Origin: Dehalococcoidia bacterium
Lineage (GTDB): Bacteria; Chloroflexota; Dehalococcoidia; UBA2979
Assembly: GCA_965226785.1 (NCBI GenBank)
Contig: CBDDEC010000004.1
Location: 588,093 to 652,092 of the forward strand
Length of the DNA: 64,000 nt
Reading direction: 5' to 3'
In this document: positions 12,852 through 59,519 of the stretch, piece by piece
Layout: every line of letters starts with the position of its first letter
Position numbering within the stretch: position 1 is the first letter of the stretch
The notes under the pieces: generated by a model
Seen by the model: only the letters and a program-made list of their open reading frames with translations
What the model was told of the DNA's origin: nothing
Database searches by the model: none
Position numbers and translations under genes: made by a program

Positions 12852-12987
12852 TTCGCGATCCGTGTTCGTTGAGTGCTTCGTCTTCTACTCAAGCAAGACG
12901 CACTACCCGCTCAGATTGTTCCCAGAGGCTAGAAAGCATCGGTGGTGGGGGTGTAGTGAACCGCCCCGGGTTTAGTGGAGACTCGGT

Positions 12988-14195
<1,208 letters not shown>

Positions 14196-14355
14196 CGCTC
14201 CATCCTCTCAAGGACTGGAGCCTCCAACATTCCCGGGGCGGTTCACGCAGCTACTCAGGTGTCGCGCCAGCTCGCGTCTTGACAGTCTGGCAGCGCGCTG
14301 ATAGCACTCCAACGATGCAAGCTCCGACCGGACGTCGTTTGGCGGTGGTGAGCTG

Positions 14356-16221: not shown

Positions 16222-16355
16222 CGGGAACAATCAAGGGGATTCGCCGAACCCGAGTCAACCGTACTACTCGGCCAAGCTTGTGCTCTTGTCAGAAACGTGT
16301 TAGCACGGTCCGAATACGAACGTGTTACATGGCTCCCCCAGAAGGACACTCCCAA

Positions 16356-19194: not shown

Positions 19195-20190
19195 CGTCCG
19201 CCCCTATCATGCGTATTGCGAGATCGGTCATCGACCGGGACTGGCTCGTCAGGTACCGGCTTCTCGCTACCGTTGAGCATCGTTGGGTCTCCCGCTCCCG
19301 CAACACAGCCATCCTTGCAGCGATGACAAGATTGCCTCCCAACGCGGTCAGCAGTCGTGGCGGGTGTCCCTGCGTCGGTCGACCGAACCCTCGTCCTCCC
19401 CGACGCCCGTCGGGCATCTTGCGCACAAGACACCTGTCCCGGCATGGTCAGACGGATGCCTCCGCGGTCATTCTGCCAGTGTTAGTGTGTCTTCGCTAGA
19501 CGCCCAGGGGCGGCTGTGTCAGCCGGAGTTCGTCAGACAGGAAGCTAGGCAAGATCGAGGCACGGCGTCACGCTCACGGATCGGGCGGCGAAGCGCGAAC
19601 AGGACTCCGGTTCGAGCGCCTCCTTCCATCAAGCGACGGCACGCGCGCACCGAGGTATTTGATCCGCTACTCGCAGCGGGCTGATCGATCCAGTGTGGAA
19701 CGTCCTCGATCCATCTGAAATACCGTATTTCGCCGCGCCGACATTCTGAGGCCGCGGCGCGGGGTCAACCCAATACCGGCGTCCCCCCGCTGTCGTAGCG
19801 CGGCCGTCGGACCTCTACTCCGATCGGCAACCGTCGCATCGAGGGTTCTTTGTGACGCGACCATCCCGTGATCGGCCGAACGTAATACGATGGCCGGCGA
19901 CAAAGTGCCCCGCAACACCGCGCCGCCCACGAAAAGACGGGGCCGTTTCTGGGAGAGGACAATCAGCAGGTCCGATTCGATTGCCGAGTACGCAGTCGCC
20001 GGAGCGCCGAGATTGAGCTAGCAGCTGTCGCAGATGGGAAAAGTCGATCCCGGGCACGTAACTGAACTCTCAACGTGCCTCCGGATGGATCTCTCGTCGG
20101 ATCACGGCACGTCGCGCGGAGTGCGCCATGTGTCGCACGCACTCGCTGAGACGGTATACGGCCAGGGAACGTAGCAATCGGGAGGATCAA

Positions 20191-21225
20191 ATGGTCGGGA
20201 ACGTGCCGAAAGTACGATACGACGGTCCCGAGTTCGCAGGTTACGGTCAGCTCGGAGAACCTTACTCGCGATATCGCCGTAGGTCCGCTGTGCGCTTCGG
20301 TAGCGGCTCAAACCGCTTTGAGGTAGTTGATAACTGGGCTCGGCGCCCAAGCGGCTTCCCGCTCGGCGACGTGGCTGGCATCGCGGTCGACTCGGAAGAC
20401 AACGTCTTCGCCTTCACCCGATCCGATCGCAGAGTACAAGTCTACGATCGCGAAGGTCACTTCCTGGACTGGTGGGGCGACCGCCGCGAACACACGACAC
20501 CTCACGGCATCACGATCGACGCTGATGACAACGTATGGCTTGCCGACACAGGAGACCATACCCTCAAGAAGTTCACTCGTGAGGGTCGACCGCTGCTGAT
20601 GCTCGGGAGGCGCCACCAAAACGCCGAACGAAATAGCGGTCGGCCTTTCAACAGCCCGACACGACTGGCTGTCGCCTCAAATGGCGATCTCTTCGTTAGC
20701 GACGGTTACGGCAACAGCAAGATCCACGTCTTCACGGCCGATGGCGACTTTCAATTCAGCTTCGGAGAGCCGGGTGCGGGGCCCGGTCAGCTCAACACAC
20801 CGCACTCGATCGTAATAGATGAAACTGACCGCATCTGGGTCTGCGATCGCATGAATAGTCGAATCCAGATTTTCAACGTGGAGGGCGAGTACCTGACGGA
20901 GTGGAACGGGCTGCATCACCCAGATGATCTTGTTATTGCCCCCGACGGCACGGTATATGTCGCGGAGCTTCAGCACCGGATCAGCATCTGGAGTCCAACA
21001 GGCACACGGCTCGCAGGCTGGGGCGACGAGGGCTGCGACTGCGAACCGGGCCCTGTCGCGACGAAGCGCTGCTCGGGCGAAAGTCTCGACGCCGGAATGG
21101 TCATCGGACCCCACGCGATCGCCCTCGACTCAGAGGGATCCCTCTATGTGGGCGATCTGGCCGACTCCTACCGCGGTGTGGACCGGGGCTCGCGTTCGCT
21201 CCAGAAGTTCTTACCGGTGAGCTGA
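20191..21225 (+). CDS. NHL-repeat six-bladed beta-propeller protein
   Basis: Repeated motifs P-GIAVD, VADTGNH-like and SDGYGN. Paralog (about 40% identity) of 35347..36408. Start chosen at MVGNVPK; the ORF is open from 20128. Confidence 0.65.
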   Translation: MVGNVPKVRYDGPEFAGYGQLGEPYSRYRRRSAVRFGSGSNRFEVVDNWARRPSGFPLGDVAGIAVDSEDNVFAFTRSDRRVQVYDREGHFLDWWGDRREHTTPHGITIDADDNVWLADTGDHTLKKFTREGRPLLMLGRRHQNAERNSGRPFNSPTRLAVASNGDLFVSDGYGNSKIHVFTADGDFQFSFGEPGAGPGQLNTPHSIVIDETDRIWVCDRMNSRIQIFNVEGEYLTEWNGLHHPDDLVIAPDGTVYVAELQHRISIWSPTGTRLAGWGDEGCDCEPGPVATKRCSGESLDAGMVIGPHAIALDSEGSLYVGDLADSYRGVDRGSRSLQKFLPVS

Positions 21226-21303
21226 CCTTCTTGCATGTCTTCGTGGCCGACGCCGTTGCGTGGCGACACCTGATCGCGGTACACATCACCGAGCAGACGA
21301 ACC

Positions 21304-22599
21304 TTGTACGAGGCGGCCAGTGCTCAAACCGGCTGTCGGAATGGTTGGTGGCCTAGGTTGAATGCCGCCCAAGCTGAGACGCCCGCCCCCGGTCCCCTCA
21401 CGGGCGTGCGCGTAGTCGACTTCTCCTGGTACGTCGCTGGCCCATTCTGCGCCCGTATGCTCGCGGACTACGGCGCGGATGTCATCAAGGTGGAGCGTCC
21501 TCGCGTGGGGGATCCGGCTCGTTCATTCGGTCCGTTTCCCGGCGACCGGCCTCACCCCGAGCGGTCGGGGGCGTTCCTGAGCCTGAATACCAGTAAGCGC
21601 GGGATCACGCTAGACCTCCGTGCTCCCGAGGGCCTGGAGATCGCCTCTCGCCTGGTTGCCGAGGCAGATGTCGTGGTCGAGGCGTTCAGTCCGGGCGTAA
21701 TGGACGGACTTGGGCTCGGCTTTGAGGCGCTCGCCGTATCGGCGAGTCAGCTTGTGTACTGCTCGATCTCCAATTTCGGTCAGAGCGGGCCCTACCGCGA
21801 CTACCAACTCACTGACTTCACCCTCTACGCGATGGGCGGCGCCATGCACGCCACCGGGCTCCCCGATCGTGAGCCGTTGAGGCTCGCAACCGGCACTCAG
21901 CTCATCCAGGGGGGCTACATTGCTGCGACAGCGGCGCTCATAGCCTACTACGGTGCTCGGCGCTCGGGAATTGGTGACTGGGTGGACGTATCGCTCTTCG
22001 AGACAGCGATGGGGTCGATCGATCGCCGGTTGACTCACCTGACCGCGCATGCGTACGCCGGCGGGCTGCAGAGGCGCGAGCCCCAATGGGGCACCGGCTA
22101 TCCTACCGGCTTCTATCCATGCAGCGATGGCTACGTTCTGATCACGGGTGGCGGTCAATTTTTCCCGCGTGTCGCGAGAATGGTTGGGCGACCGGAGCTC
22201 GGGATCGACCCACGGTACGCCGCCGATGAGGCGCAGCGCGATCCGGCCCGCCGCGAGGAGTTTGAAGCGACCGTCCTTCTCCCATGGATTCTCGAACTTA
22301 CGAAGGAGGAGGTGTGTCTGGCCGCGCAGGAGGCAGGCGTACTCTGCGGCGCGGTGAACACGGTCGCTGACGTGATGCGGTCGGCACAATTCCTCGAGCG
22401 AGGTTACTGGGCGCAGGTCGACCATCCCGAAACTGGCGAACTCCCATATCCCGGCGCACCATTCAAGATGTCGCGAACCCCTTGGGCTATCGGTCGCCCA
22501 GCTCCGCTGCTTGGCGAGCACAACCGCGACGTGCTGGTCGAAGAGCTCGGGGTGCCTGTGCGGCGCTTCCAGCGGTTGCAACGAGCAGGGGTGATCTGA
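21304..22599 (+). CDS. CaiB/BaiF family (class III) CoA-transferase
   Basis: GVRVVDFSWYVAGPFCARMLADYGADVIKVERP. Start uncertain. Stop overlaps the next start (ATGA). Confidence 0.75.
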   Translation: MYEAASAQTGCRNGWWPRLNAAQAETPAPGPLTGVRVVDFSWYVAGPFCARMLADYGADVIKVERPRVGDPARSFGPFPGDRPHPERSGAFLSLNTSKRGITLDLRAPEGLEIASRLVAEADVVVEAFSPGVMDGLGLGFEALAVSASQLVYCSISNFGQSGPYRDYQLTDFTLYAMGGAMHATGLPDREPLRLATGTQLIQGGYIAATAALIAYYGARRSGIGDWVDVSLFETAMGSIDRRLTHLTAHAYAGGLQRREPQWGTGYPTGFYPCSDGYVLITGGGQFFPRVARMVGRPELGIDPRYAADEAQRDPARREEFEATVLLPWILELTKEEVCLAAQEAGVLCGAVNTVADVMRSAQFLERGYWAQVDHPETGELPYPGAPFKMSRTPWAIGRPAPLLGEHNRDVLVEELGVPVRRFQRLQRAGVI

Positions 22600-23978
22600 T
22601 GGCGAAGTGGCCGGCCCGGAAAGAACGCCCTGTTCCCTCGACAGCCGGCACGGTCTTGCCTCTCGAAGGGATTCGTGTCTTAGATTTCACACTTGTCCTC
22701 GCTGGTCCGTACGGAACAATGTTACTAGCGGACCTAGGAGCGGAGGTGATCCGCGTCGAATCGCCGAGGCACTTTCCGAGCAGCACGCGGGGAGCAAAGC
22801 CGCGCCCGGAGCCCCGCGATCTGCAAAGTGCCACGCTATACGGCCGCGCGTACCCAGGAGCGCAGCCAGGCGAGCGACCGTGGAACCGCTACGGACCATT
22901 CAACTCGCACGCCCGAAACAAGCTTGCGATTACGCTGGATTTCGGCAAGCACGGCGCGCAGACGCTCGTCCGCCGTCTGGTTGCGGAGAGCGACGTGGTC
23001 GTCGAGAACAACGCCCCGGGGGTGATGAAGCGCCTCGGGCTCGGATTCGACGAGCTTCGCAGTGCCAATCCCGAGATCATCATGGTCTCCTCCAGCGCGT
23101 TGGGCGCCACAGGCCCATTAGCTCGTCTCCGCGGCTTCGGCGGGCACATCGACGCCATGACGGGACATCTCTCGATGCGGGGTTACCCGGATACGGATCC
23201 GTCAGCGGCGGGGAATGTTGTGATCTCAGACGCGGCCGCCGGACCGGCGATCGCGTTCGCGACGCTTGCCGCGCTAATCCATCGGGACCAGACGGGCGAG
23301 GGTCAGCACATCGACATGTCCCAAGCCGAAAACCTTATGCACTACTTCGCGCTCCCGGTCTTTGACTACTCGATGAATGGCCGCATCCCGACACCGACTG
23401 GTAACCGGCACGAGAAGTTTGCACCTCAGAGCGTTTATCGATGCCGAGGCGATGACCAGTGGATTGCCCTAACTGTCCGCGATGACTCCGACTTCGCGGC
23501 ACTCTGCCGGGTCCTGCGACGCCCTGATCTCGTGGGCGATGTGCGGTTTGCCGACTCCGCCGCGCGGTACCGGAATCAAACCGCGCTTGACCCGATCATC
23601 GAGGAGCGAACATCGCAAGAAGAAGCTCGCGTTCTTTTCGACGCCTTGCAGCGTGAGGGAGTACCGGCGGGCATCCTCCTCAACGAGGCCGACGCGTACT
23701 CCGATCCGCATCTGGCGGCTCGAGGATTCTTTGAGTCCGTGCAGCATCCCGATGCTGGAACGCATCGCTACCCAGGGATGCTCTGGCGACAGCTCCGTCG
23801 GCCGCTGAAGATCCGCCGATATGCGCCGCGCCTTGGCGAAGACAACGCCTACGTCTATCGGGACATCCTCGGGTTGAGCGCTGAGGAGTACGTCACGTTA
23901 GAGGCCTTGGGGCATGTCACGACCGAGTATCTGCCGCCAGTAGTTGAAGCAGATCATGACCCTAGCCGTTCCGGTTGA
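22599..23978 (+). CDS. CaiB/BaiF family CoA-transferase
   Basis: GIRVLDFTLVLAGPYGTMLLADLGAEVIRVESP. ATG at 22599 overlaps the upstream TGA. Confidence 0.8.
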   Translation: MAKWPARKERPVPSTAGTVLPLEGIRVLDFTLVLAGPYGTMLLADLGAEVIRVESPRHFPSSTRGAKPRPEPRDLQSATLYGRAYPGAQPGERPWNRYGPFNSHARNKLAITLDFGKHGAQTLVRRLVAESDVVVENNAPGVMKRLGLGFDELRSANPEIIMVSSSALGATGPLARLRGFGGHIDAMTGHLSMRGYPDTDPSAAGNVVISDAAAGPAIAFATLAALIHRDQTGEGQHIDMSQAENLMHYFALPVFDYSMNGRIPTPTGNRHEKFAPQSVYRCRGDDQWIALTVRDDSDFAALCRVLRRPDLVGDVRFADSAARYRNQTALDPIIEERTSQEEARVLFDALQREGVPAGILLNEADAYSDPHLAARGFFESVQHPDAGTHRYPGMLWRQLRRPLKIRRYAPRLGEDNAYVYRDILGLSAEEYVTLEALGHVTTEYLPPVVEADHDPSRSG

Positions 23979-24053
23979 GAGGCCCGCAGCGTAGTCACGT
24001 TGCGGCCTGGACGGCATGGCAGCGTGAACCACGAGTCTCCGACGGCGTGACGG

Positions 24054-25214
24054 CTAGAGCGAATTGTAGACGGCTTGAGCTAATCCCGCAGGACGCGGAT
24101 CCGCCGCCGACCCAGCCCACATGCAATTCGTGACGTAGCCGAAGCCAATCCGCACGTCGCCATCGGCCCAGCCAGCGGAACCGGCCATACCGGAGTGGCC
24201 GAAGGCGTTCTCGCCCCGGACGTCACCAGTCTCAGGCAGCGGCAACACGAACCCCATCGACCGTCGCACCTCGACATTCATCACCGCGTCGAGGCCTCGT
24301 ACCTGCTCCGTGCGCGCTCTCTCGATCGTCTCCGCGCTCATCAGCCGGACACCGCCGATCTCGCCTCCACGTGCTAGAGCGCCATAAATACGTGCAAGCG
24401 ATCGAGCATTGCCATGACCGTTCCCAGCCGGGATCTCGGCTGCGCGTAGTTCTCGATGGTTTATACCTACGCCCTCTTTAGGGGGACTGTTGCGGAACGA
24501 GCGCGCAGCCACTCTCCCGCGTTCCGAGACCGAAGCGGGAATGCCACTTCCCGGAAAGTCCGGCGTAGCCACGATCATATCTGCGACGCGGTGGTCCTCT
24601 TCTGGCCCGAAGCCGATGAAGAAGTCAACACCGAGCGGGCGCGCAATCTCGTCGCGTACGAAGTGTCCGACACTCAACCCTGTGACGCGTCGAATCACCT
24701 CACCGACCAGCCAGCCGAACGTTCCAGTGTGGTACCCGTGCTTTGTTCCGGGCTCCCACATTGGTGCCTGCCGCTCGAGAGCGCGAACCATCGTTCCCCA
24801 CTCGAGAGTGGCGCCAGCCGGGAGCTCCTGTTCAACCAGCGGGAGGCCTGCCTGGTGAGTGAGCAGCCATTTCACAGGGATATGCGCTTTGCCGGCCTGG
24901 CCGAACTCGGGCCAGTAGCGGGCGACAGGTGACTCAAGGTCTATCAGCCCCTGCTCGGCTAGCATGTGCGCCGCAACCGCGACCACTCCCTTTGTGCATG
25001 AGTACAAGATGACAATCGTATCGCGCCGCCAAGGTCGGGTCCGTGCGGCGTCTGTAAAGCCCCCCCAAAGATCGACTACCGTTTCGCCATCGAGTGTGAC
25101 GGCCACCGCCGCCCCCACCTCGCCATGGTCCGTGAAGTTGCGAGTGAAGGCCTCGCGGACACCCTCGAACCCTGACTGACATTGCCCATTGATATTGACC
25201 GCCGGCCCTGGCAT
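24054..25214 (-). CDS. serine hydrolase (beta-lactamase/esterase family)
   Basis: S-x-x-K motif in ILYSCTKGVVAVAAHML. 386 aa. Confidence 0.7.
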   Translation of the reverse strand: MPGPAVNINGQCQSGFEGVREAFTRNFTDHGEVGAAVAVTLDGETVVDLWGGFTDAARTRPWRRDTIVILYSCTKGVVAVAAHMLAEQGLIDLESPVARYWPEFGQAGKAHIPVKWLLTHQAGLPLVEQELPAGATLEWGTMVRALERQAPMWEPGTKHGYHTGTFGWLVGEVIRRVTGLSVGHFVRDEIARPLGVDFFIGFGPEEDHRVADMIVATPDFPGSGIPASVSERGRVAARSFRNSPPKEGVGINHRELRAAEIPAGNGHGNARSLARIYGALARGGEIGGVRLMSAETIERARTEQVRGLDAVMNVEVRRSMGFVLPLPETGDVRGENAFGHSGMAGSAGWADGDVRIGFGYVTNCMWAGSAADPRPAGLAQAVYNSL

Positions 25215-25271
25215 CTTTCGACCCTATACTCAGTCTTATCGAGTCCCTTTGGAGCGCGCTCGCTGAGACAC

Positions 25272-26408
25272 TCACTTGGTGCGAGACTCGGACCGCCATG
25301 TTGGCTTGCTTGGAAGGGCAATTGTGCAACTCCCGACTGTGTTCGTGCGCCCATCCTGACTGTGGGCTCGAAGATCGCAATCGATGAGGTGCTCGTCCCC
25401 CAAGACACGCTTCGCTGTGACCTGTCCGGTGTAGTAGTTGCAGTCGCCGCTCAAGTTCAACCCGATGAGCTTCCCCTTCAAGTACTTCAGGTCGGCGTCA
25501 TCCCCCATCCAGCTCGCCACTGCTCGCATCAGCCACGACATTCGCTGAGGTCCGCTGTCGAATGCGCGCGGTATCGCGCGGTTCGCCCACGTCGAGGCGC
25601 TCGGGTTAGCGCTCGTGTGTCCACTGGTCCATGGATCCGGTTCAAAACTACGCATCGCGGCTTCAGGCTCGCGCGGAAAGCCAGCAAATCCAGGATCATC
25701 CGGTCCACGCCGCGTTCCCATTGTCCAGATCGCGATTTCAGCTTCCCAAAGCGGTCCCTGCACGACCGGCGTAATGACGTCGCCCTCGTGTGTGTCCTCA
25801 TAGAATCTCGGTTCAGCGCCACGGGGCCGTAGGCCCAGAGCCTTGTCCTTTGCGATCCGTCGCTGGTCCGCATCCGAGTAGACCGGAATTGCCGACACGT
25901 CTCGGTAGAGACTGCGTTTCGATGCGGCCTCGGCGGGCGCCACAACCGCATGAGCGATGGCGGTCGCCAGCAGCTCTCCTCGCTGGTTCACGTATCGGAT
26001 CTCCGCAGACAAGACTCCAGATTTGCTGGCATAGCCACTTACCTTGTCCTCGGCGTCGAGAAACTCATGCTCCACCGCGATCACGTCGCCGGACCGGACC
26101 GGTCCGTAAAAGGTCCAATCGGTACCAGCGTAGAGTGTGTTCAGCTTGGGCGTGCTCGCCTCCAGCGCCGGCAGCGTGATCAGTAATTGGGCCGTGTTGT
26201 CGATGGCGTAGAAGAAGTAGGGTGCGCCGATCACTCCGCTGAAGCGCGTGTTCCGAGCGTAGCCGGGGTTTGTGTAAAGGGGGTTGTAGTCGCCAACCGC
26301 GTACGAGCACTTCCGAATTTCCGAGGCGTCTACAGGCTCAGCGTTGTGAACTCGCGCCGGCCATCGCCTCCCCCTGTACTCCTTAAGATGGTTGAGACTG
26401 AACTCCAC
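25272..26408 (-). CDS. MaoC-like (double hot-dog) dehydratase
   Basis: N-terminal GDYNPLYTNPGYA resembles the FAS1-like/MaoC N-terminal domain. 378 aa is consistent with two hot-dog folds. Confidence 0.5.
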   Translation of the reverse strand: MEFSLNHLKEYRGRRWPARVHNAEPVDASEIRKCSYAVGDYNPLYTNPGYARNTRFSGVIGAPYFFYAIDNTAQLLITLPALEASTPKLNTLYAGTDWTFYGPVRSGDVIAVEHEFLDAEDKVSGYASKSGVLSAEIRYVNQRGELLATAIAHAVVAPAEAASKRSLYRDVSAIPVYSDADQRRIAKDKALGLRPRGAEPRFYEDTHEGDVITPVVQGPLWEAEIAIWTMGTRRGPDDPGFAGFPREPEAAMRSFEPDPWTSGHTSANPSASTWANRAIPRAFDSGPQRMSWLMRAVASWMGDDADLKYLKGKLIGLNLSGDCNYYTGQVTAKRVLGDEHLIDCDLRAHSQDGRTNTVGSCTIALPSKPTWRSESRTK

Positions 26409-26495
26409 GGCGGTGATCCCTTCTACGTCGCGGCCCGGGCTTGGCCGGGTTCAACTGGCCACTCGCCCCAGCCGCGCCGCTGCGCGAAGGTCGCG

Positions 26496-27299
26496 CTAGC
26501 CACGACTTGATGCCGGATCACGCTTCTCGCGAAATGCGCGCACCGCCTCACGAGCAAACTCCGTCGTCCGAGCCATCGCCATCGCCCAGTCAGCATCCTC
26601 GAGAGCATGGTCCAAGCTCGTGTCCTGAGCGCGATACGCGAGGCGCTTCGACAGTTGGATCGCAACTGGCGATTGGTCCGCGACGCGGGCCGCAAACTCG
26701 TGAGTCGCTGAGACCAGACGCCCGGCAGGGAAGACACGGCTGACGTAACCGGTGGCGAGCGCGGCTTCAGCGTTCATGAAGTCACCGGTCCACATCAACT
26801 CGAACGCCTTTGAGAGCCCCACGATCCGCGGAAGGAAGTACGCGCCACCGTCACCGGGAACGAGACCGCGATTGACATAAGACATGGCAAATCGAGCGGA
26901 TTCCGACGCAAAGCGAACGTCGCACATGCTCGCGAGGTCCATCCCAGCGCCGACGGCCGGCCCATTGACTGCGGCTATGTAGGGCTTGTCGAGGAGCTGT
27001 ACGGCACGTGTGAGGGCGTGGGCTCCGTCTCGCAAGAAATTTCGCCGCGAGGCGGCTGTTTCGAGTTCATCAGTGGCGAACTGGGCTTCCCCGCCGCGGA
27101 GATCTGCACCAGCGCAAAACCCTCGACCAGCTCCGGTCAAGATCACGACGTTCACTGCCTCGTCCCGGCGGGCATCATCGATCGCGACGCGCCACTCATC
27201 CAGCATGCGGAATGTGAAAGCGTTCATCTGCTGTGGGCGGTTCAGCGTGATCGTCGCGACACCATCCGCACGTTCATAGGCTATGTCTTGGAAATTCAT
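26496..27299 (-). CDS. enoyl-CoA hydratase/isomerase family protein
   Basis: Motifs ITLNRPQQMNAF and GFCAGADL. Start at MNFQDIAY (strong GGGGAGG RBS upstream); the ORF is open to 27314, abutting the IS end. Confidence 0.75.
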   Translation of the reverse strand: MNFQDIAYERADGVATITLNRPQQMNAFTFRMLDEWRVAIDDARRDEAVNVVILTGAGRGFCAGADLRGGEAQFATDELETAASRRNFLRDGAHALTRAVQLLDKPYIAAVNGPAVGAGMDLASMCDVRFASESARFAMSYVNRGLVPGDGGAYFLPRIVGLSKAFELMWTGDFMNAEAALATGYVSRVFPAGRLVSATHEFAARVADQSPVAIQLSKRLAYRAQDTSLDHALEDADWAMAMARTTEFAREAVRAFREKRDPASSRG

Positions 27300-27347
27300 C
27301 TTGGACCTCCCCATAGTGAACCGCCCCGGGTTTAGTGGAGACTCGGT

Positions 27348-28555
<1,208 letters not shown>

Positions 28556-28628
28556 CGCTCCATCCTCTCAAGGACTGGAGCCTCCAACATTCCCGGGGCG
28601 GTTCAGAGAGCCGAACTAAGCGAGGTTG

Positions 28629-29441
28629 CTACTGCCCCGTATAAAGTGGAGCGCGGCGCTCCTGGAACGATCGACGGCCTTCCTGGTAATCCTCTGTCGC
28701 CTTAGAGAATGTCCAGAGAAACTGCTCGTACTCCGCGTGAGACGCGAGGTCCGGTTCTGCGAGTGCGCGGTAGACCAGCCGCTTGGTTAACTCGATCGGG
28801 ACCGAGGGGCCGGTAGCAAGATCACGAGCGAAGGTCATCGTGCGCTGCATCAGCTCTTCGTGGGGGACGACTTCCTCAACGAGACCTTGGCGCCAAGCCT
28901 CCGATGCGTCGATCGCCTCTCCTCGCCAAAGCAAATGTAGTGCGCGGCTGGGCCCGATGAGGTGTGTGAGCAAGTGCGACGCGCCACCATCCGGCAAGAT
29001 CGCACGACGCAGGAACGCAGGAAGGAAGCTCGCTCTGTCCGAGGCGAACCGCACATCACAGACCAGTGCTAGCGAAATACCGGCACCCGCGCACACACCG
29101 TTCACCGCCGCGAGCACCGGCTTCTCGAGCCCCCGAAGCTCCGTGATCCATGACCAGCGTCCCTTATACCACTCCGCGCGCGGTCCTTCCTTCTGGGTGA
29201 GCATCGGACTACCTGTTGTCGCGCTCAGGTCTGCGCCTACACAGAAGCCGCGTCCCGCCCCGGTGAGGACCAATACTTTTGCGTCGTCGTCGTGAGCAAC
29301 TTGCCTAATCGCCTCAAGCAGCGCCTTCTTCATCTCGTCTGTGAGCGCGTTTAACTTGTCTGGGCGGTTGAGTGTCACCGTAACCACGCCGTGGTCCTGT
29401 TGAATCAGAACTTGTGTGTCACTCACTGAGCACCGCCTCAA
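28629..29441 (-). CDS. enoyl-CoA hydratase/isomerase family protein
   Basis: VTLNRPDKLNAL and GFCVGADL. 4-nt overlap with the upstream amidohydrolase gene. Confidence 0.75.
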   Translation of the reverse strand: MRRCSVSDTQVLIQQDHGVVTVTLNRPDKLNALTDEMKKALLEAIRQVAHDDDAKVLVLTGAGRGFCVGADLSATTGSPMLTQKEGPRAEWYKGRWSWITELRGLEKPVLAAVNGVCAGAGISLALVCDVRFASDRASFLPAFLRRAILPDGGASHLLTHLIGPSRALHLLWRGEAIDASEAWRQGLVEEVVPHEELMQRTMTFARDLATGPSVPIELTKRLVYRALAEPDLASHAEYEQFLWTFSKATEDYQEGRRSFQERRAPLYTGQ

Positions 29442-30406
29442 GACGTCTCGGCTGAACGGACCTCGGTGTCGAGGCCCAGCAGTCGCGCGGCGTTTCCTCC
29501 GAGAATCAAGTCGGCCTCGTCGCGCGTGAACGCTCTTCCGTAGCGGTCGGCGCGCTCAGGAAGCTCGCGCATGAAGGTAATGATCTCGGGGTAGGTGCCG
29601 CCCGCGACAGTCCTCGGCCCAGCGGCAAAGTCAGTGCCGAGCAGGATCCGATGCGCGCCGAGAACGTCGCGCATCTCAGACAGCACAGTCACAAACAGCT
29701 CTGGATTACGGAGAGCTTCCCCTGTCCACTGCGAGATCTCGATGTACGAAGTGGGATGGCTGCGGCTGACCTGAAGGGCCTCCTCCCACCAATAACGGTA
29801 CCCCGCGTGTCCGTAGATCAGCGTGGCTTCCGGGTAACGCGCCGCGAGCTCGGAGACAGCGCTGGGGCGCGTGAGCGCCGCTCGGAGGGGCGGCGGTACA
29901 TGCGCTGTGTGCACGAGCACAGGTAAACCTCGCTCAACACACGTTTCGATAAGCGGCTGACAGATGTCGTCCGCAACGCTGTAGCCGCACGCCGGATAGA
30001 GCTTTAGCCCCTTGAAGCCCCACTCATCAACCGCTCGTCTGAAATATTCAAGGGTTTCGTCGCGACGCGGATCCATGCCGAAGAACGCAAAGAAACGACC
30101 AGGGTATTTGAGGATCAGCTCCCCGTGATGCTCGATCACGGCTGAGGGCGGGGTGTCTTGATCTTGGCCGAATGCGAGACCCAGGTCGACGGTCATCGCA
30201 ACTACTGCGTCAACTCCTGCTCGATTCATCTCATCGAGGAGCAGGGTTCCATCAGGATCCGAAGCCCCTTCCATCACCCTCGGAAGAATGGCCAACGGAT
30301 CGCGGTGAGGGAGCGTCCGGTATGCCGCCGACTTAGCCATCCCGAGCTTGTAACCCGGCGGCTGGTAGCCCTCGTCCCATACATGCACGTGCATATCAAC
30401 GATCAT
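29438..30406 (-). CDS. amidohydrolase-family (amidohydrolase 2-like) metal-dependent hydrolase
   Basis: MIVDMHVHVWDEGY start motif and HAGYRYW. Confidence 0.65.
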   Translation of the reverse strand: MIVDMHVHVWDEGYQPPGYKLGMAKSAAYRTLPHRDPLAILPRVMEGASDPDGTLLLDEMNRAGVDAVVAMTVDLGLAFGQDQDTPPSAVIEHHGELILKYPGRFFAFFGMDPRRDETLEYFRRAVDEWGFKGLKLYPACGYSVADDICQPLIETCVERGLPVLVHTAHVPPPLRAALTRPSAVSELAARYPEATLIYGHAGYRYWWEEALQVSRSHPTSYIEISQWTGEALRNPELFVTVLSEMRDVLGAHRILLGTDFAAGPRTVAGGTYPEIITFMRELPERADRYGRAFTRDEADLILGGNAARLLGLDTEVRSAETS

Positions 30407-30451
30407 CGATTGTTCTCTGTCACAGGCCGAGCAGGGCGTCCTTCCCCCTCA

Positions 30452-31264
30452 TCATTCGGTCTCGCCTCGGTTAAACGCGGCGATCGCTTCCTTCAATCCG
30501 TTGGTCCGGACCATGTTCGCCAGCTTCTCCACAGGCTCCGATGCGTGTAACAGCGCGTCGATCTCGGAACCGAACGTCACGGCTACGCGGAACCCCTGGG
30601 TATCCACCGTCCTGTTGACGGAGAGCTTTTTCATCTGGAGGATCTTCGATGGTACCGTCGCGATCTTCATCGCCATTGCCCTGACCGTACTCTCTAGCTC
30701 CTCGGGAGGTACGGCGCGATTTGCCCAGCCCCAGTCTGAGGCCTGTTTTCCGCTAATCTGGCTGCCTGGTACGAACGACATCTCCTTTGCCCGCTTCGGT
30801 CCGACAAGCCAAGTCCACATCGGACTTATGTAGCCGCCTCCGACTGGAATCCCAGGAAAACCGACGATGGCGTCTTCGGCGATGATGGTGATATCGCAGA
30901 AGATACAAAGCTGTGTCGCTCCGCCCAGACAGTAGCCATGGACCTGAGCAATAACTGGCTTCGGGCAATCCCAGATCTTGAGCCACAGATCCGTGTTGCG
31001 CTGCAGTCGGTTGCGATCGTCTATCGTATCCTGCGTCGGCTGACTCGCTTCATCCCCCGGGCTGAGGTCGTACCCCGAAGAGAAGGCTCGTCCGGCTCCT
31101 CGGATGATGATCACCCGCGTATCCGGGTCGTTCGTCGCATCTTCGATAGCGGCCGCGATTCCCTCCCGGATCTCATCGTTGATGGCGTTCAGCCGCTCGG
31201 GGCGGTTCAGCGTAAGAACGCCAATCTGCCCGTCCTTCTCCCACAGCACGCTGTCACTCGACAT
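30452..31264 (-). CDS. enoyl-CoA hydratase/isomerase family protein
   Basis: LTLNRPERLNAIN and AFSSGYDL. Confidence 0.75.
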   Translation of the reverse strand: MSSDSVLWEKDGQIGVLTLNRPERLNAINDEIREGIAAAIEDATNDPDTRVIIIRGAGRAFSSGYDLSPGDEASQPTQDTIDDRNRLQRNTDLWLKIWDCPKPVIAQVHGYCLGGATQLCIFCDITIIAEDAIVGFPGIPVGGGYISPMWTWLVGPKRAKEMSFVPGSQISGKQASDWGWANRAVPPEELESTVRAMAMKIATVPSKILQMKKLSVNRTVDTQGFRVAVTFGSEIDALLHASEPVEKLANMVRTNGLKEAIAAFNRGETE

Positions 31265-31369
31265 CCTTACTTCTCCCTTCGGTCACCCCAGAACCAAGCA
31301 CGGGCGGACCTGCCACCGAACGACGCTCCGAGCCGACGGCACCGCTGGGGGACTTGCACCCGACGCCAT

Positions 31370-32683
31370 CTAAGTCACCGGATGCCAAGTCGGCTCGTTT
31401 CCGATGACTTCGTCAGCCTGAAGCTGAGCTATCTCCTGATCGGATCGCCCCAGGATCTCCTTGAGAACAACAAGATTATCTGCTCCCAGAGTTGGAGAGG
31501 CTGTGTCCCACCCTGCAACCGATCGCTGGAAATGGAACGGAAAACCGACGTAGAGGTGCGCCCCCGATACCGGCCGGTCGAGAAGCTTTATATCACCACG
31601 GTCGTGAAAGTGTTCGATTGCGAGCGCCTGCGACTGATTCGCGACCGGTACTGCCGAAACACCCACTGCTTGCAACGTCGAGGCCAATTCGAAGGCGTTG
31701 TGTTTCCTTGTCCAATTGGAGATGTCCCGATCGAGATCCTCCAGGTGCTCCCGACGCCCTTGGATCGACAAGTACCGCGGATCGTCTGCGAAGCTCTCAC
31801 CCGAAGCTACGCCGCACAGGGCGGTCCACTCCAAATCCGAGTCCACGTCGATTGAAATCCACTCATCAAGGGCAAGCTTAACAGGGCGTTCCTCGGTCGA
31901 GTTCGCCAGCGCGATGATGACCTCCTGCTCGTCGCCTGGCTGGCATAGGTATACATTCTCTGGACCTGGCTTGCGATTCCCATCAGGCTCCTGCACCCGC
32001 TGATTCAGTGCGGAGTCCATCAGGAACTCTATCCCGAGTAACGCAGTGATCTCGACCTGTGCCTGTTCGATGATTTGACCTTGGCCGGTTGCATCACGGC
32101 TACGCAAAGCCGTGATGATCGAGAAAACGGCAATCGCCGCGTTGAAAACGTCCGAGTAAGGGACCGCCGCATCGCCATTGGGCCGCTCGCCACGATATGC
32201 ATGGGCGGCCGCGACGCCGGCAAGCTGGGTGAACGTGGCGCCGTAGCCAGTTCGGCCTGCGAGCGGTCCTTCGGAGCCGAAGCCATCGAGGCTCGCATAG
32301 ATCAGGCGCGGGTTCACCTGAGACAGCTGCTCGTACCCGATCCCGAGTTTCAACGCACTACCAGGTCGGTAGCTTTCGACCACGACATCGCTGACCCGCG
32401 CGAGATCGAGGAAGATTCGGTGACCGCGCTCATCGTCGAGGTTGACGGTGAAGCCGAGCTTCGCGTGATTGTACCCATTGAACGCAGCGCTCCATTCATG
32501 GCCGTCGGGGCCAGGCCTGCAGATGCGCATTAGACGAGCACCGTCATACCGCTGGATCGCTTCGACTTTAATCACCTCGGCTCCGAGGCCGCCGAGCAGG
32601 CAAGTCGCCAGTGGCCCAGCCCAATGCGAGCAATGATCGATGACACGGATGCCGGCGAGCGGCCCAGCCCTAACGGCGGGCAT
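31370..32683 (-). CDS. CaiB/BaiF family CoA-transferase
   Basis: GIRVIDHCSHWAGPLATCLLGGLGAEVIKVE. Start overlaps the upstream stop by 1 nt. Confidence 0.75.
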   Translation of the reverse strand: MPAVRAGPLAGIRVIDHCSHWAGPLATCLLGGLGAEVIKVEAIQRYDGARLMRICRPGPDGHEWSAAFNGYNHAKLGFTVNLDDERGHRIFLDLARVSDVVVESYRPGSALKLGIGYEQLSQVNPRLIYASLDGFGSEGPLAGRTGYGATFTQLAGVAAAHAYRGERPNGDAAVPYSDVFNAAIAVFSIITALRSRDATGQGQIIEQAQVEITALLGIEFLMDSALNQRVQEPDGNRKPGPENVYLCQPGDEQEVIIALANSTEERPVKLALDEWISIDVDSDLEWTALCGVASGESFADDPRYLSIQGRREHLEDLDRDISNWTRKHNAFELASTLQAVGVSAVPVANQSQALAIEHFHDRGDIKLLDRPVSGAHLYVGFPFHFQRSVAGWDTASPTLGADNLVVLKEILGRSDQEIAQLQADEVIGNEPTWHPVT

Positions 32684-33876
32684 CAGTGTTCGCCCGCCAG
32701 GCTTAGCTCCTCGATCGCCTCGTTCGTCAGGCCCAACGCAGAGAGGACCTCGACGGTGTGCTCACCGACCAGCGGTGCCGGAGCCAGCGGAGCGAACGGC
32801 ATCCCGGATGCACGAATATAGTTGCTAGGCATGCGCACTGACGAGCCGTCAGGCAGAGCTTGGTCGGCGAAGTAGCCTCTCACGTTGAGGTGTTCTGCGC
32901 CGAGGACATCCTCGGCGGTCAAGACCGGGCTGATGGGGATCTGGTTCCGCTCGTTGCCCTCCTCAAAGAGTTCATCGCGCGTACGTTGCCGCATAAGTGG
33001 GTCGAATATCTCGTACAGTTCGTCGGCGTGCTCTATCCGAATCGCAGGGTTTGCGAACCGCGGATCTTCCAGCAGCGCATCCAATCCGAACATCGAACAA
33101 AGCCTTCGCCAGTGGTCGTCAGTCAGCAGGTTGATCCCGACGAATCCGTCCGCACATTTCATCACACCCGGAAAGGGGAGGTGGATACGCTGGGAAATGG
33201 CCCCGATATAGGAGAACCGCATCAGTCCCAGCGTCGCCGTCAGCAACTGGCTCCCCACCTGGCTAATATCAATCAGCTGCCCGAGGCGTTCCCGCCGGTT
33301 GGCTCGCAGAGGCGCCGCAAGCATCGCTGCTGCACACGCCCCGGTGAGAAGCTCGGAGGCTCTCCCTGGAGCCCGTAACGGTGGCCCATCTGTCGCGCCC
33401 CACCCGTACATCCCGCCCGCGATCGACTGGAACGCCAGGTCGTGGCCCTTCCAGTAGCGCCAAGGCCCGGTCATCCCGAAAGGCGTAATCCGAAGCCAAA
33501 CAAGCGCCGACAGGTCGGACCTCAGAGCGAGAATGGGGTCGTCATCAGGGTTGAGTGGACGGGAGTCGATCACTGCGTCTGCGCTGCGGAGCAGGATGTG
33601 GAGCGCTTCGCGACCCGACCGGGTCTCGACATCGAGTACTACGCTCCGCTTCCGAGCGTTCAGGAACGCGTGCATCCCGCTCAATGGAGGGCCAGTGGCG
33701 GACTGTTTGAGAGGCGGCAGGGACCGTGTGTCGTCGCCTCCGCTCGGCTCGACCTTGATGATGTCCGCGCCGAGGTCGGAGAAGAGCTTCCCGCAGAGAG
33801 CCCCGGCTATGCCACCACCGAGTTCTACGATGACGACCTCGGCATACGGACCGCTGTAAGATTCAGTGGTCATCAC
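32683..33876 (-). CDS. CaiB/BaiF family CoA-transferase
   Basis: VVIVELGGGIAGALCGKLFSDLGADIIKVEP. ATGA overlap with the upstream LLM gene. Confidence 0.75.
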   Translation of the reverse strand: MMTTESYSGPYAEVVIVELGGGIAGALCGKLFSDLGADIIKVEPSGGDDTRSLPPLKQSATGPPLSGMHAFLNARKRSVVLDVETRSGREALHILLRSADAVIDSRPLNPDDDPILALRSDLSALVWLRITPFGMTGPWRYWKGHDLAFQSIAGGMYGWGATDGPPLRAPGRASELLTGACAAAMLAAPLRANRRERLGQLIDISQVGSQLLTATLGLMRFSYIGAISQRIHLPFPGVMKCADGFVGINLLTDDHWRRLCSMFGLDALLEDPRFANPAIRIEHADELYEIFDPLMRQRTRDELFEEGNERNQIPISPVLTAEDVLGAEHLNVRGYFADQALPDGSSVRMPSNYIRASGMPFAPLAPAPLVGEHTVEVLSALGLTNEAIEELSLAGEH

Positions 33877-34883
33877 GTTCCGAACGTCTTTAGGATTCGG
33901 CGAATGTTCGCAGCTGCATCGGCGCGGGCGGGCCCGGCGGCATGCGAATACAAAATCGGGGTGACAACGCTCTGGAACCGCTCAACGCGATCGATGACGT
34001 CGCTCGCTGTGCCCGCAGCTGCGATGGTGTCGATCATTTCATCGGTGACAGCAGCTGCCAGCGCGTCCCAGTCGCCCGCGCTGAAAGCGTTTCGAATCGG
34101 CTGCTTTTGACTCGACCAGCCGTGCCAATCCAGCAGCTTCCCGTATGACTTGGTGCTCAAATAGTAGCCGATCTGATAAGCCGCTCGCTTGCGCGCCACC
34201 CCGCGATCTTTGTCAATCGAGGTGATGACCCAGCTCGTCAACCTGAAAGCGGCGTCACCCCGTCCGGCCTCATCCAGGCCCTGTTTCACCTTTGGTGCCG
34301 CAGCGCGCTCTAGGTACTCTGGCGAGAAACAGGGATGGCCGGCGAGTCCGTCGAACGTGCGACCGGCCGTCCGGAGCATATAGTCGTTAACCGCCGCCAA
34401 GTAGATCGGGATCGGCGGCTCGACGCGCGCTCGTTTTAGCGCGGGCCCGTCGAGCGTGACGTTGATGAAGGTCCCGCTGAAGTTAAAGGCGCCCGGTTCG
34501 GCGTAAGCCCAAACCTGCCTAAGGAACTCGCAGAGCTCGGCCACACGCGGAGCGGGGTGGTCGAATTCCTCGCCGAGTTGGTAGAGGTTCTGACGCTTCG
34601 TACCGGTGCCAAGGCCAAGGATGAAGCGCCCATCAGTCAACGATTGGAGGTTGGCGGCAGCCGTCGCCAGAGTCAGAGGTGAGCGAGCGAAGGCGCGAGC
34701 GATCCCGGTCCCAAGTGTGGCGCGCCGCACGACGTGGGCGATTGAGGCGAGGGCGACGAAAGCGTCGCCGTCCTCCACCCAGATGGAGTCTAGGCCGCCG
34801 CGGTCGGCGATCTCCGCCAGCCGGATTCGTTCGCGCACGTCAACATGGGCCAACGAAACCCCTAGCGGTTGTCCTGCATCCAT
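33873..34883 (-). CDS. LLM-class flavin/F420-dependent oxidoreductase
   Basis: Luciferase-like TIM-barrel motifs (LGLGTGT, IYLAA). 336 aa. Confidence 0.7.
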   Translation of the reverse strand: MDAGQPLGVSLAHVDVRERIRLAEIADRGGLDSIWVEDGDAFVALASIAHVVRRATLGTGIARAFARSPLTLATAAANLQSLTDGRFILGLGTGTKRQNLYQLGEEFDHPAPRVAELCEFLRQVWAYAEPGAFNFSGTFINVTLDGPALKRARVEPPIPIYLAAVNDYMLRTAGRTFDGLAGHPCFSPEYLERAAAPKVKQGLDEAGRGDAAFRLTSWVITSIDKDRGVARKRAAYQIGYYLSTKSYGKLLDWHGWSSQKQPIRNAFSAGDWDALAAAVTDEMIDTIAAAGTASDVIDRVERFQSVVTPILYSHAAGPARADAAANIRRILKTFGT

Positions 34884-35346
34884 GAGAATCCTCTTCGAAC
34901 CGATCGTCGCAGCGAGCTTGTGCCTGTGTGGCCGATCTCGGCCATGTACCGATGCAGGCGGGCGGCGGACTGAAGACGCCTACTACCATAACGGCGCGCC
35001 GGCCCAATACGACCCACTCTCTCAGCGCTGTGTGTGCCGCTTCTCCTCCCAGGCCCACCCCTACATGTTGACGCGGATGTTAGCCTTCGCCGCGGAACGT
35101 GCTCGGTAAGGATATCGCGGACAGCGCGTCGCCACGGTGATCACCGCCGTCGAGGACCGCGAGGTGCCGGGGCTGCACACGCTGTTGCATCGCGACTTCC
35201 CGGAGATCACGATGCCGATGCCGGCCCAGGCTTTCGGCATCGGCATCGACGAGGGCGGCGACGAGATGATGGACGTGCGCGTCCACGGCGCCGTGATGTT
35301 CGTGATGCCGCTGGACGAGCTGTTCCGCAGCTGACGCCGAGTCCGT

Positions 35347-36408
35347 TCAGGCGGTGCGGACGAGCTTGTTGAGCGACTTCAGCTCCCGCGGCGGATCGAG
35401 GCGGCTGCCGGCGTTGGTGTACGAGACCTCGCCGACGTAGACATCGCCGCGCGAGTCGACGGCCACGCTGTGCGGTGCGATGAACTGGCCGGCGTCACTG
35501 CCCTCCTCGACGGCGCCGAACCGCCCGAGGAGCGTGCCGGAGCGGTCGTACACGCTCACGCGGTGGCCGATCCCGAGCGCGCCATCCATCAGCGCCACGC
35601 CGTTGAGCTCGCCGATGTAGACGAGACCGTCCTGCCCGACGGTGAGTCCGCACGGCCGGTGGACATCGTGCCAGACGTCGAGAAGCGTGCCCTCGCCGTC
35701 GAACACCTGGACGCGGAGCGCCTCGCGGTCGGCGACGTAGAGGCGGTCGTCGGCGTCGATGCTGATGTTGTGCGGGCACATGAACTGCCCTCGGTCGATG
35801 CCGGGCGAGCCCCAGGAGTGCAGCAACTCGCCCTCGGCCGAGTAGTGGTGCACGCGCGCGTTGCCGTAACCGTCGCTGATGTACAGGCTGCCGTCCGAGG
35901 CGACGGCAACGTCGGTCGGGCGGTTGAACGGCTCACCGCTGAACTTCTCGGCGGGCTCATCGGGGCGACCAATCGTCAGCAGCAGCTCACCCTCGGGCGC
36001 CCACTTCGTCACGGTGTGGCGGCCGTCGTCGACGCAGAACACGGAGCCATCGGGCGCGATGGTGATCGCGTGCGTGCGTGCGCTAAAGGTGCCCGCGCCG
36101 AACGTGCGGACGAAGCTACCGTCCGAGTCGAAGACCAGCACCGGGTTGTCCGTGTTGCGGGTGAGTGCGAAGAGCCGGTCGTCCGCGTCAACGGCGACGC
36201 CAGGCGTCTCGTGCAGCGTCATCCCGTCGGGCAGCTGATGCCAATCGATCTGCGCCTCGAACGCGGGCGCGGCCTGGGTCGTGGTGGTCATGGTGCGACT
36301 CCCCTCGATGGTCGAGGCAGCGATGATACGTCGCTTGGCGGGGCTGGGCAGCGCTTGACGCGAGCGTGCCGGCTCGACAGCCTGCGCAGCGAGAGCAGAT
36401 ACGACCAA
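35347..36408 (-). CDS. NHL-repeat beta-propeller protein
   Basis: Paralog of 20191..21225 (SDGYGN, VADREALRVQVFD). Start uncertain (possibly ATG at 36291). Confidence 0.65.
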   Translation of the reverse strand: MVVSALAAQAVEPARSRQALPSPAKRRIIAASTIEGSRTMTTTTQAAPAFEAQIDWHQLPDGMTLHETPGVAVDADDRLFALTRNTDNPVLVFDSDGSFVRTFGAGTFSARTHAITIAPDGSVFCVDDGRHTVTKWAPEGELLLTIGRPDEPAEKFSGEPFNRPTDVAVASDGSLYISDGYGNARVHHYSAEGELLHSWGSPGIDRGQFMCPHNISIDADDRLYVADREALRVQVFDGEGTLLDVWHDVHRPCGLTVGQDGLVYIGELNGVALMDGALGIGHRVSVYDRSGTLLGRFGAVEEGSDAGQFIAPHSVAVDSRGDVYVGEVSYTNAGSRLDPPRELKSLNKLVRTA

Positions 36409-40727: not shown

Positions 40728-40756
40728 GGACGCTCTCTCCCAGGCCGAAGTCAAGC

Positions 40757-58172: not shown

Positions 58173-58222
58173 TGAACCGCCCCGGGAATGTTGGAGGCTC
58201 CAGTCCTTGAGAGGATGGAGCG

Positions 58223-59430
<1,208 letters not shown>

Positions 59431-59519
59431 ACCGAGTCTCCACTAGCGAACCCGGGGCGGTTCAGTCCGGAGAACCGGGTCAGGCTCCGAGAGCCTCAGT
59501 TTGAGTCGAGGAGGAAAGC

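Follow-up and report, generated by a model that had tools for sequence, protein, structure and literature searches.

The region described here, positions 20191-36408 of a 64,000-nt stretch of DNA from a Dehalococcoidia bacterium (contig CBDDEC010000004.1; the whole stretch is called the window below), encodes a dense group of family III (CaiB/BaiF) CoA-transferases (CoATs), crotonase-fold proteins (ECHs), hydrolases, a luciferase-like oxidoreductase (LLM), and NHL propellers. The genes were inventoried by listing open reading frames (ORFs) and by Pfam scans (Table 1). They form two divergent transcription units, NHL1-CoAT1-CoAT2 on the plus strand and a minus-strand operon that in its native form comprises nine genes in the order LLM-CoAT4-CoAT3-ECH3-Amido2-ECH2-ECH1-MaoC-esterase, with NHL2 upstream. 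In the window this operon is interrupted by an insertion sequence (IS) of the IS3 family, which the initial annotation of this DNA had overlooked. Most of the gene content proposed there holds: the MaoC protein combines two hot-dog domains in a single chain, the metal amidohydrolase is an Amidohydro_2 protein with a conserved set of metal ligands, the beta-lactamase-fold serine hydrolase contains the SxxK (SCTK) and HSG motifs, and the NHL propellers, described as about 40% identical and located at the two ends on opposite strands, share 38% identity over 316 aa. Overlaps of 1 or 4 nt between genes are present at both CoAT pairs (1 nt) and between LLM and CoAT4, but the 4-nt overlap of Amido2 and ECH2 exists only with a TTG start. 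The GC content is 59-64% over 14-34 kb and 65-70% further to the right.

Table 1. Features of the focal region and of its surroundings in the window
Feature	Position	Strand	Supporting match or remark
Two ABC permease genes, probable uptake component	14356-15300, 15322-16221	+	Pfam BPD_transp_1, BPD_transp_1_N, OppC_N; outside focal region
Family 5 solute-binding protein of ABC importer	16071-18026	+	Pfam SBP_bac_5, 5e-58
LLM0, second F420-type luciferase-like oxidoreductase	18130-19194	-	Pfam Bac_luciferase; divergent from NHL1
NHL1, six-bladed NHL propeller	20191-21225	+	Pfam NHL, 3e-29
CoAT1, alpha-type family III subunit	21358-22599	+	Pfam 8e-103
CoAT2, beta-type subunit, predicted catalytic	22599-23978	+	PDB 9fn0_B, 1.2e-58
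Beta-lactamase-fold serine hydrolase (family VIII esterase/PBP-like), last in long operon	24054-25214	-	Pfam Beta-lactamase, 7e-71
Double hot-dog MaoC-like acyl dehydratase/hydratase, 378 aa	25272-26408	-	motif GDYNPLY
ECH1, crotonase fold	26496-27299	-	Pfam ECH_1, 7e-51
IS3-family insertion sequence, 1,289 bp	27317-28605	-	orfA HTH_Tnp_1, orfB rve, ALIL pseudoknot
ECH2, crotonase, conserved-core member	28629-29441	-	Pfam ECH_1, 5e-51
Amido2, Amidohydro_2, metal-dependent TIM-barrel enzyme, rare subfamily	29438-30406	-	
ECH3, crotonase	30452-31264	-	Pfam ECH_1, 6e-44
CoAT3, beta-type subunit, predicted catalytic	31370-32683	-	PDB 9fn0_B, 1.4e-45
CoAT4, alpha-type subunit	32683-33876	-	PDB 9fn0_A, 1.5e-32
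LLM, F420-type luciferase-like oxidoreductase, first in long operon	33873-34883	-	Pfam Bac_luciferase, 2e-52
NHL2, NHL1 paralogue, 463 nt upstream of LLM	35347-36291	-	Pfam NHL, 3e-19
Fused CoAT-CoAT protein, 817 aa	46942-49395	-	two CoA_transf_3 domains, 3e-175; outside focal region

All four CoAT proteins are covered end to end by the CoA_transf_3 domain (PF02515; Pfam E-values of 1e-69 to 1e-103). Their genes had been described as two translationally coupled pairs and are indeed arranged in this way, CoAT1/CoAT2 and CoAT4/CoAT3 overlapping by one base each at a TGATG junction, and CoAT4 being coupled both to the LLM gene upstream and to CoAT3 downstream. For CoAT2, the ATG at 22599, which overlaps the CoAT1 stop codon, was taken as start; the start of the metagenome caller (410 aa) was rejected, since it would cut off the beginning of the Pfam domain. 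The proteins thus belong to the CaiB/BaiF family as annotated, but they do not appear to be four independent enzymes, rather two pairs built like the two-subunit benzylsuccinate CoA-transferase BbsEF. CoAT2 and CoAT3 both have chain B of this enzyme (9fn0_B) as top match in the PDB, the next match of CoAT3 reaching only 1e-31, and CoAT4 has chain A (9fn0_A) as top match. CoAT1 is closest to SUGCT (1e-56) and matches 9fn0_A (9e-49) better than 9fn0_B (2e-39).

The division of the pairs into unlike subunits is evident at the active site. In family III CoA-transferases, a strictly conserved Asp is the nucleophile and covalent catalyst, and the active sites are located at the subunit interface (PMC9196870, PMC9813914). 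Asp169 of Frc and CaiB, Asp165 of Mct, and Asp173 of YfdE served as references, and the alignment column was fixed via index 173 of YfdE. In this column an Asp is found in CoAT2 (D211), CoAT3 (D178), 9fn0_B, and all 114 of the close CoAT3 homologues that were scored, whereas CoAT1 has Leu182, CoAT4 has Glu176, and 9fn0_A has a Tyr. The reverse pattern is seen at an acidic column 29 positions earlier, where CoAT1, CoAT4, and 9fn0_A have kept an Asp and the nucleophile-bearing chains, again including 114 of 114 CoAT3 homologues, have Gly or Ala. Within each pair the nucleophile-less subunit is encoded upstream and the nucleophile-bearing subunit downstream. The Asp of the "AYD" motif (position 144 of YfdE, corresponding to Glu140 of Frc) was also considered as nucleophile and rejected, the Asp173 column of YfdE being located 29 residues further downstream; the assignment of CoAT2 and CoAT3 as inactive subunits was likewise discarded after the nucleophile had been recounted against Asp173. 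Judged by these columns, both pairs are built like BbsEF, with one nucleophile-bearing and one nucleophile-less subunit. Many CoAT3 homologues carry the label "BbsF subunit" at JGI. Our literature search retrieved no paper on the 9fn0 structure or on the question which Bbs subunit bears the Asp.

The fused CoAT encoded further to the right in the window repeats this arrangement within one polypeptide. According to Pfam, BLASTP against CoAT1-4, and the motif columns, its N-terminal half is without the nucleophile and its C-terminal half contains it. A single ORF of 832 aa with the same N-to-C order is present in another Dehalococcoidia metagenome-assembled genome (MAG; CAXXXY010000008.1, 12563-14923 of the extracted locus), where it adjoins an LLM gene, an Amido2 homologue with 58% identity, and a crotonase. 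P0267 and P0305, two fusions from metagenomes, follow this order, and further fusions deviate from it. A physical partnership of the subunits is supported because such natural fusions exist, and together with the translational coupling they indirectly support an alpha2beta2 complex. By analogy, we infer that each pair assembles into a heteromer with a single type of catalytic subunit, and succinyl-CoA is the presumable donor. The two-subunit relatives, including the phthalate enzyme PhtSa/PhtSb, use succinyl-CoA together with benzylsuccinate or phthalate (PMC10818641; bioRxiv 10.1101/2022.07.29.502009). At least three transferases at this one locus can be read as BbsEF-type heteromers or fusions with one catalytic subunit type each, and this signature narrows the plausible substrates towards dicarboxylate-type acids. 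The BbsEF-type architecture of the transferases is the most informative feature of the cluster. As side observations, 84 nt of the fused gene are 79% identical to the start of CoAT4, and the fused gene is flanked by an IS6/IS240-type transposase gene (45760-46596).

Four crotonases had been assigned to the region, but it contains only three, and the fourth is encoded 15 kb outside (4361-5395, minus strand). At the two positions of the hydratase Glu pair, registered with the PROSITE motif PS00166, ECH1 has Asp/Tyr, ECH2 Ser/Phe, and ECH3 Gln/Gly, so that none of the three keeps the pair. Hydration by these crotonases is doubtful because both Glu residues have been replaced. Modification of the thioester after CoA activation, which the initial annotation postulated, is otherwise supported by homology. 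ECH2 has PaaG as second-best NCBIfam match (194 bits, below the cutoff), and its "PD" loop contains an Asp like that of PaaG. PaaG is an isomerase with a single catalytic Asp (PMC7497051). ECH3 contains a MenB/BadI-like loop, and its top PDB match is the uncharacterised structure 4jyj (1e-61). ECH1 starts with an ATG at 27299. The crotonase outside the region has a Glu at the first hydratase position, is encoded by an ORF with an unusually long N-terminal extension, and adjoins a TetR regulator gene (5645-6268, minus strand). In the motif of the MaoC protein the Asp is present, but a Tyr replaces the usual His of G-D-x-N-P-[LIV]-H. This NPLY is found throughout the subfamily, and His264 in the second half is nearly invariant. 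The structural model of the MaoC protein resembles a MaoC-domain dehydratase of Chloroflexus (4e3e) and the itaconyl-CoA hydratase PaIch (8huc).

Amido2 has no sequence match in the PDB and only 45 homologues. Its metal ligands are conserved as HxH, His, His, and Asp (H6, H8, H166, H200, and D259) and are located on a TIM barrel, a fold that is certain from the structural model (pLDDT 95.5). The model superposes on uncharacterised family members, fuconolactonase, the LigW/DHBD decarboxylases, and LigI-like hydrolases. The best NCBIfam match of the beta-lactamase-fold hydrolase is the esterase LipL, with 219 bits against a cutoff of 650. The LLM, annotated as F420/flavin oxidoreductase, has its top NCBIfam matches exclusively in F420 classes (TIGR03617, 199 bits; Mer, 150 bits), but each of these scores is below the respective cutoff. 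The same is true for LLM0, whose top matches are F420-dependent LLM classes below cutoff and whose gene adjoins the cluster in the IS-free contigs, too. NHL1 matches peptidylglycine amidating lyase (PAL) best among the enzymes in the PDB (3fvz, 9e-26), and residues 583-717 of 5wm0 (PAM) align to its residues 103-231. Five residues of NHL1, H105, Y173, H205, R221, and H308, are conserved in NHL2. Going by the match coordinates, H105, Y173, H205, and R221, and by spacing also H308, would coincide with or lie close to the residues that in PAL bind zinc (three His) or serve as catalytic Tyr and Arg. This is a lead that makes NHL1 and NHL2 candidate PAL-like zinc lyases. NHL1 has no evident signal peptide, and a search of protein representatives with NHL1 retrieved only giant multi-propeller proteins.

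Upstream of the plus-strand unit, the window encodes an importer-type ABC system. The real start of its solute-binding protein gene is probably downstream of 16071, and the protein gives weak NCBIfam matches of nickel, peptide, and opine type, all far below cutoff. The same type of transporter adjoins a cluster of Amido2, LLM, and fused CoAT in another metagenome. Taken together with the PAL-like propellers, this could indicate that the locus handles a peptide- or opine-like conjugate of an N-substituted amino acid, which the family 5 system would import and which would be split by PAL-like lyases, amidohydrolase, and PBP-like hydrolase before the released acids are activated with CoA. The transporter next to the cluster and in a related context, the alignment of NHL1 with the PAL catalytic core including a compatible His/Tyr/His/Arg/His spacing, and the combination of Amidohydro_2 with a beta-lactamase/PBP fold would fit such a substrate. 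However, the correspondence to PAL has been deduced from match coordinates, the transporter scores are all far below cutoff, most members of Amidohydro_2 act as lactonase, decarboxylase, or hydratase and not as amidase, and the cluster encodes neither an aminotransferase nor a deaminase. We therefore regard this possibility as improbable.

The IS3 element has TG...CA inverted-repeat ends, points in the same direction as the operon, and contains the ALIL pseudoknot for -1 frameshifting (Rfam, 88 bits). Two further copies are present in the window, at 12957-14245 with one mismatch and, inverted, at 58173-59464. The element is absent from two metagenomic contigs (L005 and L006) that are 99.6-99.9% identical to the window, and their empty site consists of CCCCATAG joined directly to AGCCGAAC. 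The occupied site is flanked by TAG and GAG, so that the target duplication is either imperfect, with one mismatch, or only 2 bp long. Because a clean target duplication is missing, an IS-mediated rearrangement was suspected, but it was rejected as the IS-free alleles reveal a simple insertion. The insertion is thus simple, recent, polymorphic, and strain-specific. Because IS-free alleles exist, the cluster is natively contiguous: its nine genes share one strand, several of them overlap, no gap exceeds 105 nt, and ECH1 starts 38 nt after ECH2. In the window 17 nt separate the end of the IS from the start codon of ECH1, the GGAGG ribosome-binding site being intact. The insertion may uncouple ECH1, MaoC, and the esterase from the operon promoter. 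Scans for promoters and terminators returned fewer sites than in shuffled controls. The interval of about 1 kb between LLM0 and NHL1 (19195-20190) contains no convincing ORF and no Pfam or Rfam match and is conserved in the IS-free contigs. Between the two direct IS3 copies lie 14.4 kb with the importer genes and half the cluster; recombination between these copies could delete or mobilise this segment. In a megablast search of PLSDB with the 16 kb, the IS alone was matched and the cluster was found on no plasmid of this database; the closest plasmid-borne relatives of the IS are about 71% identical.

Outside its own population the cluster is only partly conserved. An exact look-up of the Amido2 protein retrieved the locus from several metagenome assemblies of the same population with the arrangement kept, among them a 2.99-Mb contig with the IS-bearing allele (ENA ERZ28763718, ctg125171), which is 99.8% and not 100% identical to the window, so that the window stems from a further assembly of this population. 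A scan of a genome collection with Amido2 resulted in three loci. The nearest genome-resolved relatives are Dehalococcoidia MAGs that encode an ECH, an LLM, and a fused CoAT beside Amido2; the Actinomycetota origin implied by the initial annotation is a guess. Synteny of the core, LLM-CoAT4-CoAT3 plus Amido2-ECH2, was detected in two other contigs, L010 and L014, at 48-71% identity. In L010 (Amido2 about 71% identical), LLM-CoAT4-CoAT3 are encoded on one strand together with an NMO-like gene and acyl-CoA dehydrogenases, the LLM orthologue (65%) being located upstream of the CoAT pair, and Amido2-ECH2-ECH are encoded on the opposite strand. L014 contains CoAT4-CoAT3-ECH2 at 59-63% near a short-chain dehydrogenase/reductase (SDR) gene, LLM genes, and a thiolase/DUF35 pair. 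The ECH2 orthologues in these two contigs (56-60%) adjoin either CoAT4/CoAT3 or Amido2. The region is natively contiguous but is not conserved as a whole: only LLM-CoAT4-CoAT3 and Amido2-ECH2 recur in relatives. More distant Amido2 relatives have fused CoATs, LLMs, SBP_bac_5 transporters, TcuAB-like proteins, PrpD/MmgE, class I fumarase, and thiolase/DUF35 as neighbours. TcuAB-like proteins, PrpD/MmgE, class I fumarase, and thiolase with DUF35 typically act on di- or tricarboxylates.

This partial conservation could mean that the region is a mosaic, in which the small conserved module (LLM-CoAT4-CoAT3 and Amido2-ECH2) has been joined to unrelated paralogues (CoAT1/2, ECH1, ECH3, MaoC, esterase, NHL1/2) serving several substrates, within a mobile-rich part of a genome in which the LLM and CaiB/BaiF families are expanded. 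In L010 and L014 synteny is limited to the small module, the closest MaoC relatives are found in different contexts, and LLM genes (five), CoA_transf_3 domains (six), and crotonases (four) are numerous in the window. Similar unexplained expansions of CaiB/BaiF and LLM genes are described for SAR202 (PMC5395668, PMC6306507). The 36.8-64 kb section of the window is rich in mobile elements, which in the window as a whole or in this section include the three IS3 copies, a four-copy rve element, IS110, IS6, IS481/Mu-like, and integrase genes. However, the compact one-strand arrangement of the IS-free allele is typical of a single operon, and several assemblies preserve it at 99.6-99.9% identity, although all of these represent one population. 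We consider a mosaic rather unlikely, but the most probable of the alternatives.

Among the mobile elements to the right of the cluster are genes for an IS481/Mu-like transposase (37990-39444), a tyrosine integrase (39801-40754), and an IS110 transposase (41608-42657); complete or partial copies of a recurring rve-type element are found near 40766, 51236, 57242, 60040, and 63931. Further LLM genes (50156-51100 and 62812-63795) and an aminotransferase gene (61589-62815) are interspersed. On the other side, the window contains three paralogous adenylate/guanylate cyclase genes (3-845, 8493-9824, and 9939-11297), two of which encode an additional alpha/beta-hydrolase domain at the N-terminus; over 300 nt, the DNA of one pair is 84% identical.

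With slightly better than even confidence, we interpret the region as a catabolic cluster for a carboxylic acid; the most likely substrate would be a di- or polycarboxylate bearing substituents, or a conjugate of such an acid. The activation of carboxylic acids by CoA transfer, as proposed in the initial annotation, is supported by homology, but the transferases have to be recast as two-subunit enzymes. Each CoAT heteromer would move CoA from a donor such as succinyl-CoA to the substrate without consumption of ATP. The thioester would then be isomerised, hydrated, cleaved, or decarboxylated by the three non-canonical crotonases and the double hot-dog hydratase, and the F420-dependent LLM would supply a redox step. 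The Amidohydro_2 protein, the serine esterase, and the PAL-like NHL lyases might act on lactone, ester, amide, or hemiaminal linkages to open the acid or set it free, and the adjacent ABC system might import the substrate. The co-occurring genes and, by analogy, the known substrates of two-subunit transferases provide weak evidence that the substrate is a substituted dicarboxylate.

Several observations weigh against this interpretation. The dicarboxylate part is drawn from analogy and from a loose co-occurrence of genes, and the CoATs are only about 28-31% identical to BbsEF. CoAT4 shares its Glu176 with the orthologues in L010 and L014, and this residue might have a catalytic role after all. 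The reading of the crotonases depends on the PROSITE register, the hydratase positions being Glu144 and Glu164 of rat enoyl-CoA hydratase. Pfam scans detected no acyl-CoA dehydrogenase, SDR, or thiolase/DUF35 gene in 14-37 kb, and a lyase is likewise missing from the cluster. Because of these absences, the cluster alone does not constitute a complete route of the beta-oxidation type. A regulator gene was found nowhere in the cluster. In L010 and L014 the core is not accompanied by ECH3, MaoC, the esterase, the NHL genes, and CoAT1/2, and the closest MaoC homologues (43-44%) are located among P450, BVMO, and esterase genes; therefore the 16 kb may combine more than one function.

That the cluster is biosynthetic instead, tailoring a secondary metabolite, seems highly unlikely to us. 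Such clusters can include non-canonical crotonases, LLMs, and NHL proteins of the ScyF kind, and the ScyF model scores 104-122 bits here (against a cutoff of 350), but no gene for a polyketide synthase, nonribosomal peptide synthetase, carrier protein, methyltransferase, or exporter is found in or next to the cluster, the adjacent ABC system is of the importer type, and CoA-transferases are typical of catabolism.

In uncultured bacteria that presumably feed on recalcitrant dissolved organic matter, few gene families are as expanded and as little understood as those of the CaiB/BaiF and luciferase-like proteins. The two diagnostic columns provide a simple sequence rule for sorting CaiB/BaiF paralogues, and the small conserved module of LLM, two transferase subunits, Amidohydro_2, and PaaG-like crotonase can now be named. 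The polymorphic IS offers natural "intact" and "interrupted" alleles for a comparison of expression. As a speculation to which we attach a small probability, the cluster and the large, uncharacterised "BbsF-like" clade to which it belongs might represent an undescribed oxygen-independent and ATP-sparing route, in which family III CoATs with pseudo-subunits or fused subunits activate substituted succinate-type or carboxyl-rich compounds, or their ester or amide conjugates; crotonases other than hydratases, an F420-dependent LLM, PAL-like lyases, and a new subfamily of Amidohydro_2 would then convert the thioesters. If true, the unexplained CaiB/BaiF and LLM expansions in uncultured genomes of the Chloroflexota type could be understood in concrete biochemical terms.

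In comparison with characterised systems, the earlier statement that no known pathway is matched stands: no protein of the cluster reaches a curated NCBIfam cutoff, and partner genes are absent. A carnitine (CaiB/CaiD), bile-acid or steroid side-chain, itaconate/mesaconate, or anaerobic benzylsuccinate beta-oxidation pathway would be suggested by the family-level resemblance to CaiB, SUGCT, mesaconate CoA-transferase, EchA19, and BbsEF and by the MaoC fold resembling PaIch (8huc) and 4e3e. However, the scores remain far below the cutoffs for CaiB (57-97 bits, cutoff 413), mesaconate CoA-transferase (131-189, cutoff 700), EchA19 (111-201, cutoff 400), and PaaG (107-194, cutoff 345). None of the steroid, bile-acid, carnitine, or itaconate gene sets is present, the absent partners including CaiA/C/T, acyl-CoA dehydrogenases, the ChsH/Ltp2/FadE set with its Ltp2-type aldolase, citramalyl-CoA lyase, and BbsG/CD/AB. 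It is thus very improbable that the cluster encodes one of these pathways. The C5-dicarboxylate route, which combines a mesaconate or itaconate CoA-transferase with a double hot-dog hydratase, differs by these far sub-cutoff scores, by the missing citramalyl-CoA lyase, and by the Tyr that replaces the His in the hydratase motif.

The closest likeness is to BbsEF, with which the CoATs share the two adjacent paralogous family III genes and the reciprocal pattern of nucleophile and upstream acidic residue. The corresponding BbsEF chains are at or near the top of their PDB matches, and at the top for CoAT2, CoAT3, and CoAT4. The CoATs differ from BbsEF in the low identity, in the conserved Glu of CoAT4 in place of the Tyr of BbsEF chain A, and in their surroundings: there are no bbsG, bbsH, bbsCD, or bbsAB partners and no glycyl-radical synthase, and the neighbours are instead an F420-type LLM, Amidohydro_2, non-canonical crotonases, and NHL propellers. 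With the PAL domain of PAM (3fvz, 5wm0), NHL1 and NHL2 share the six-bladed NHL propeller and the conserved His/Tyr/His/Arg/His at compatible spacing, the residue equivalence being derived from coordinates, but they are bacterial, apparently cytoplasmic, and without a PHM partner. The inserted element resembles the IS3 family in its orfA/orfB organisation, ALIL -1 frameshift, TG...CA ends, and 3-bp flanks (TAG/GAG) and differs in the imperfect target duplication and in the distance to its plasmid-borne relatives. A further parallel is found in SAR202 and sponge-associated Chloroflexota, for which expansions of CaiB/BaiF and LLM (FMNO) genes with function unassigned are described (PMC5395668, PMC6306507). 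Here as there, many CaiB/BaiF and luciferase-like genes occur together. In the available text of those papers, however, the transferases are not resolved into BbsEF-type heteromers and fusions, and the LLMs of the present locus look F420-dependent rather than like FMN monooxygenases.

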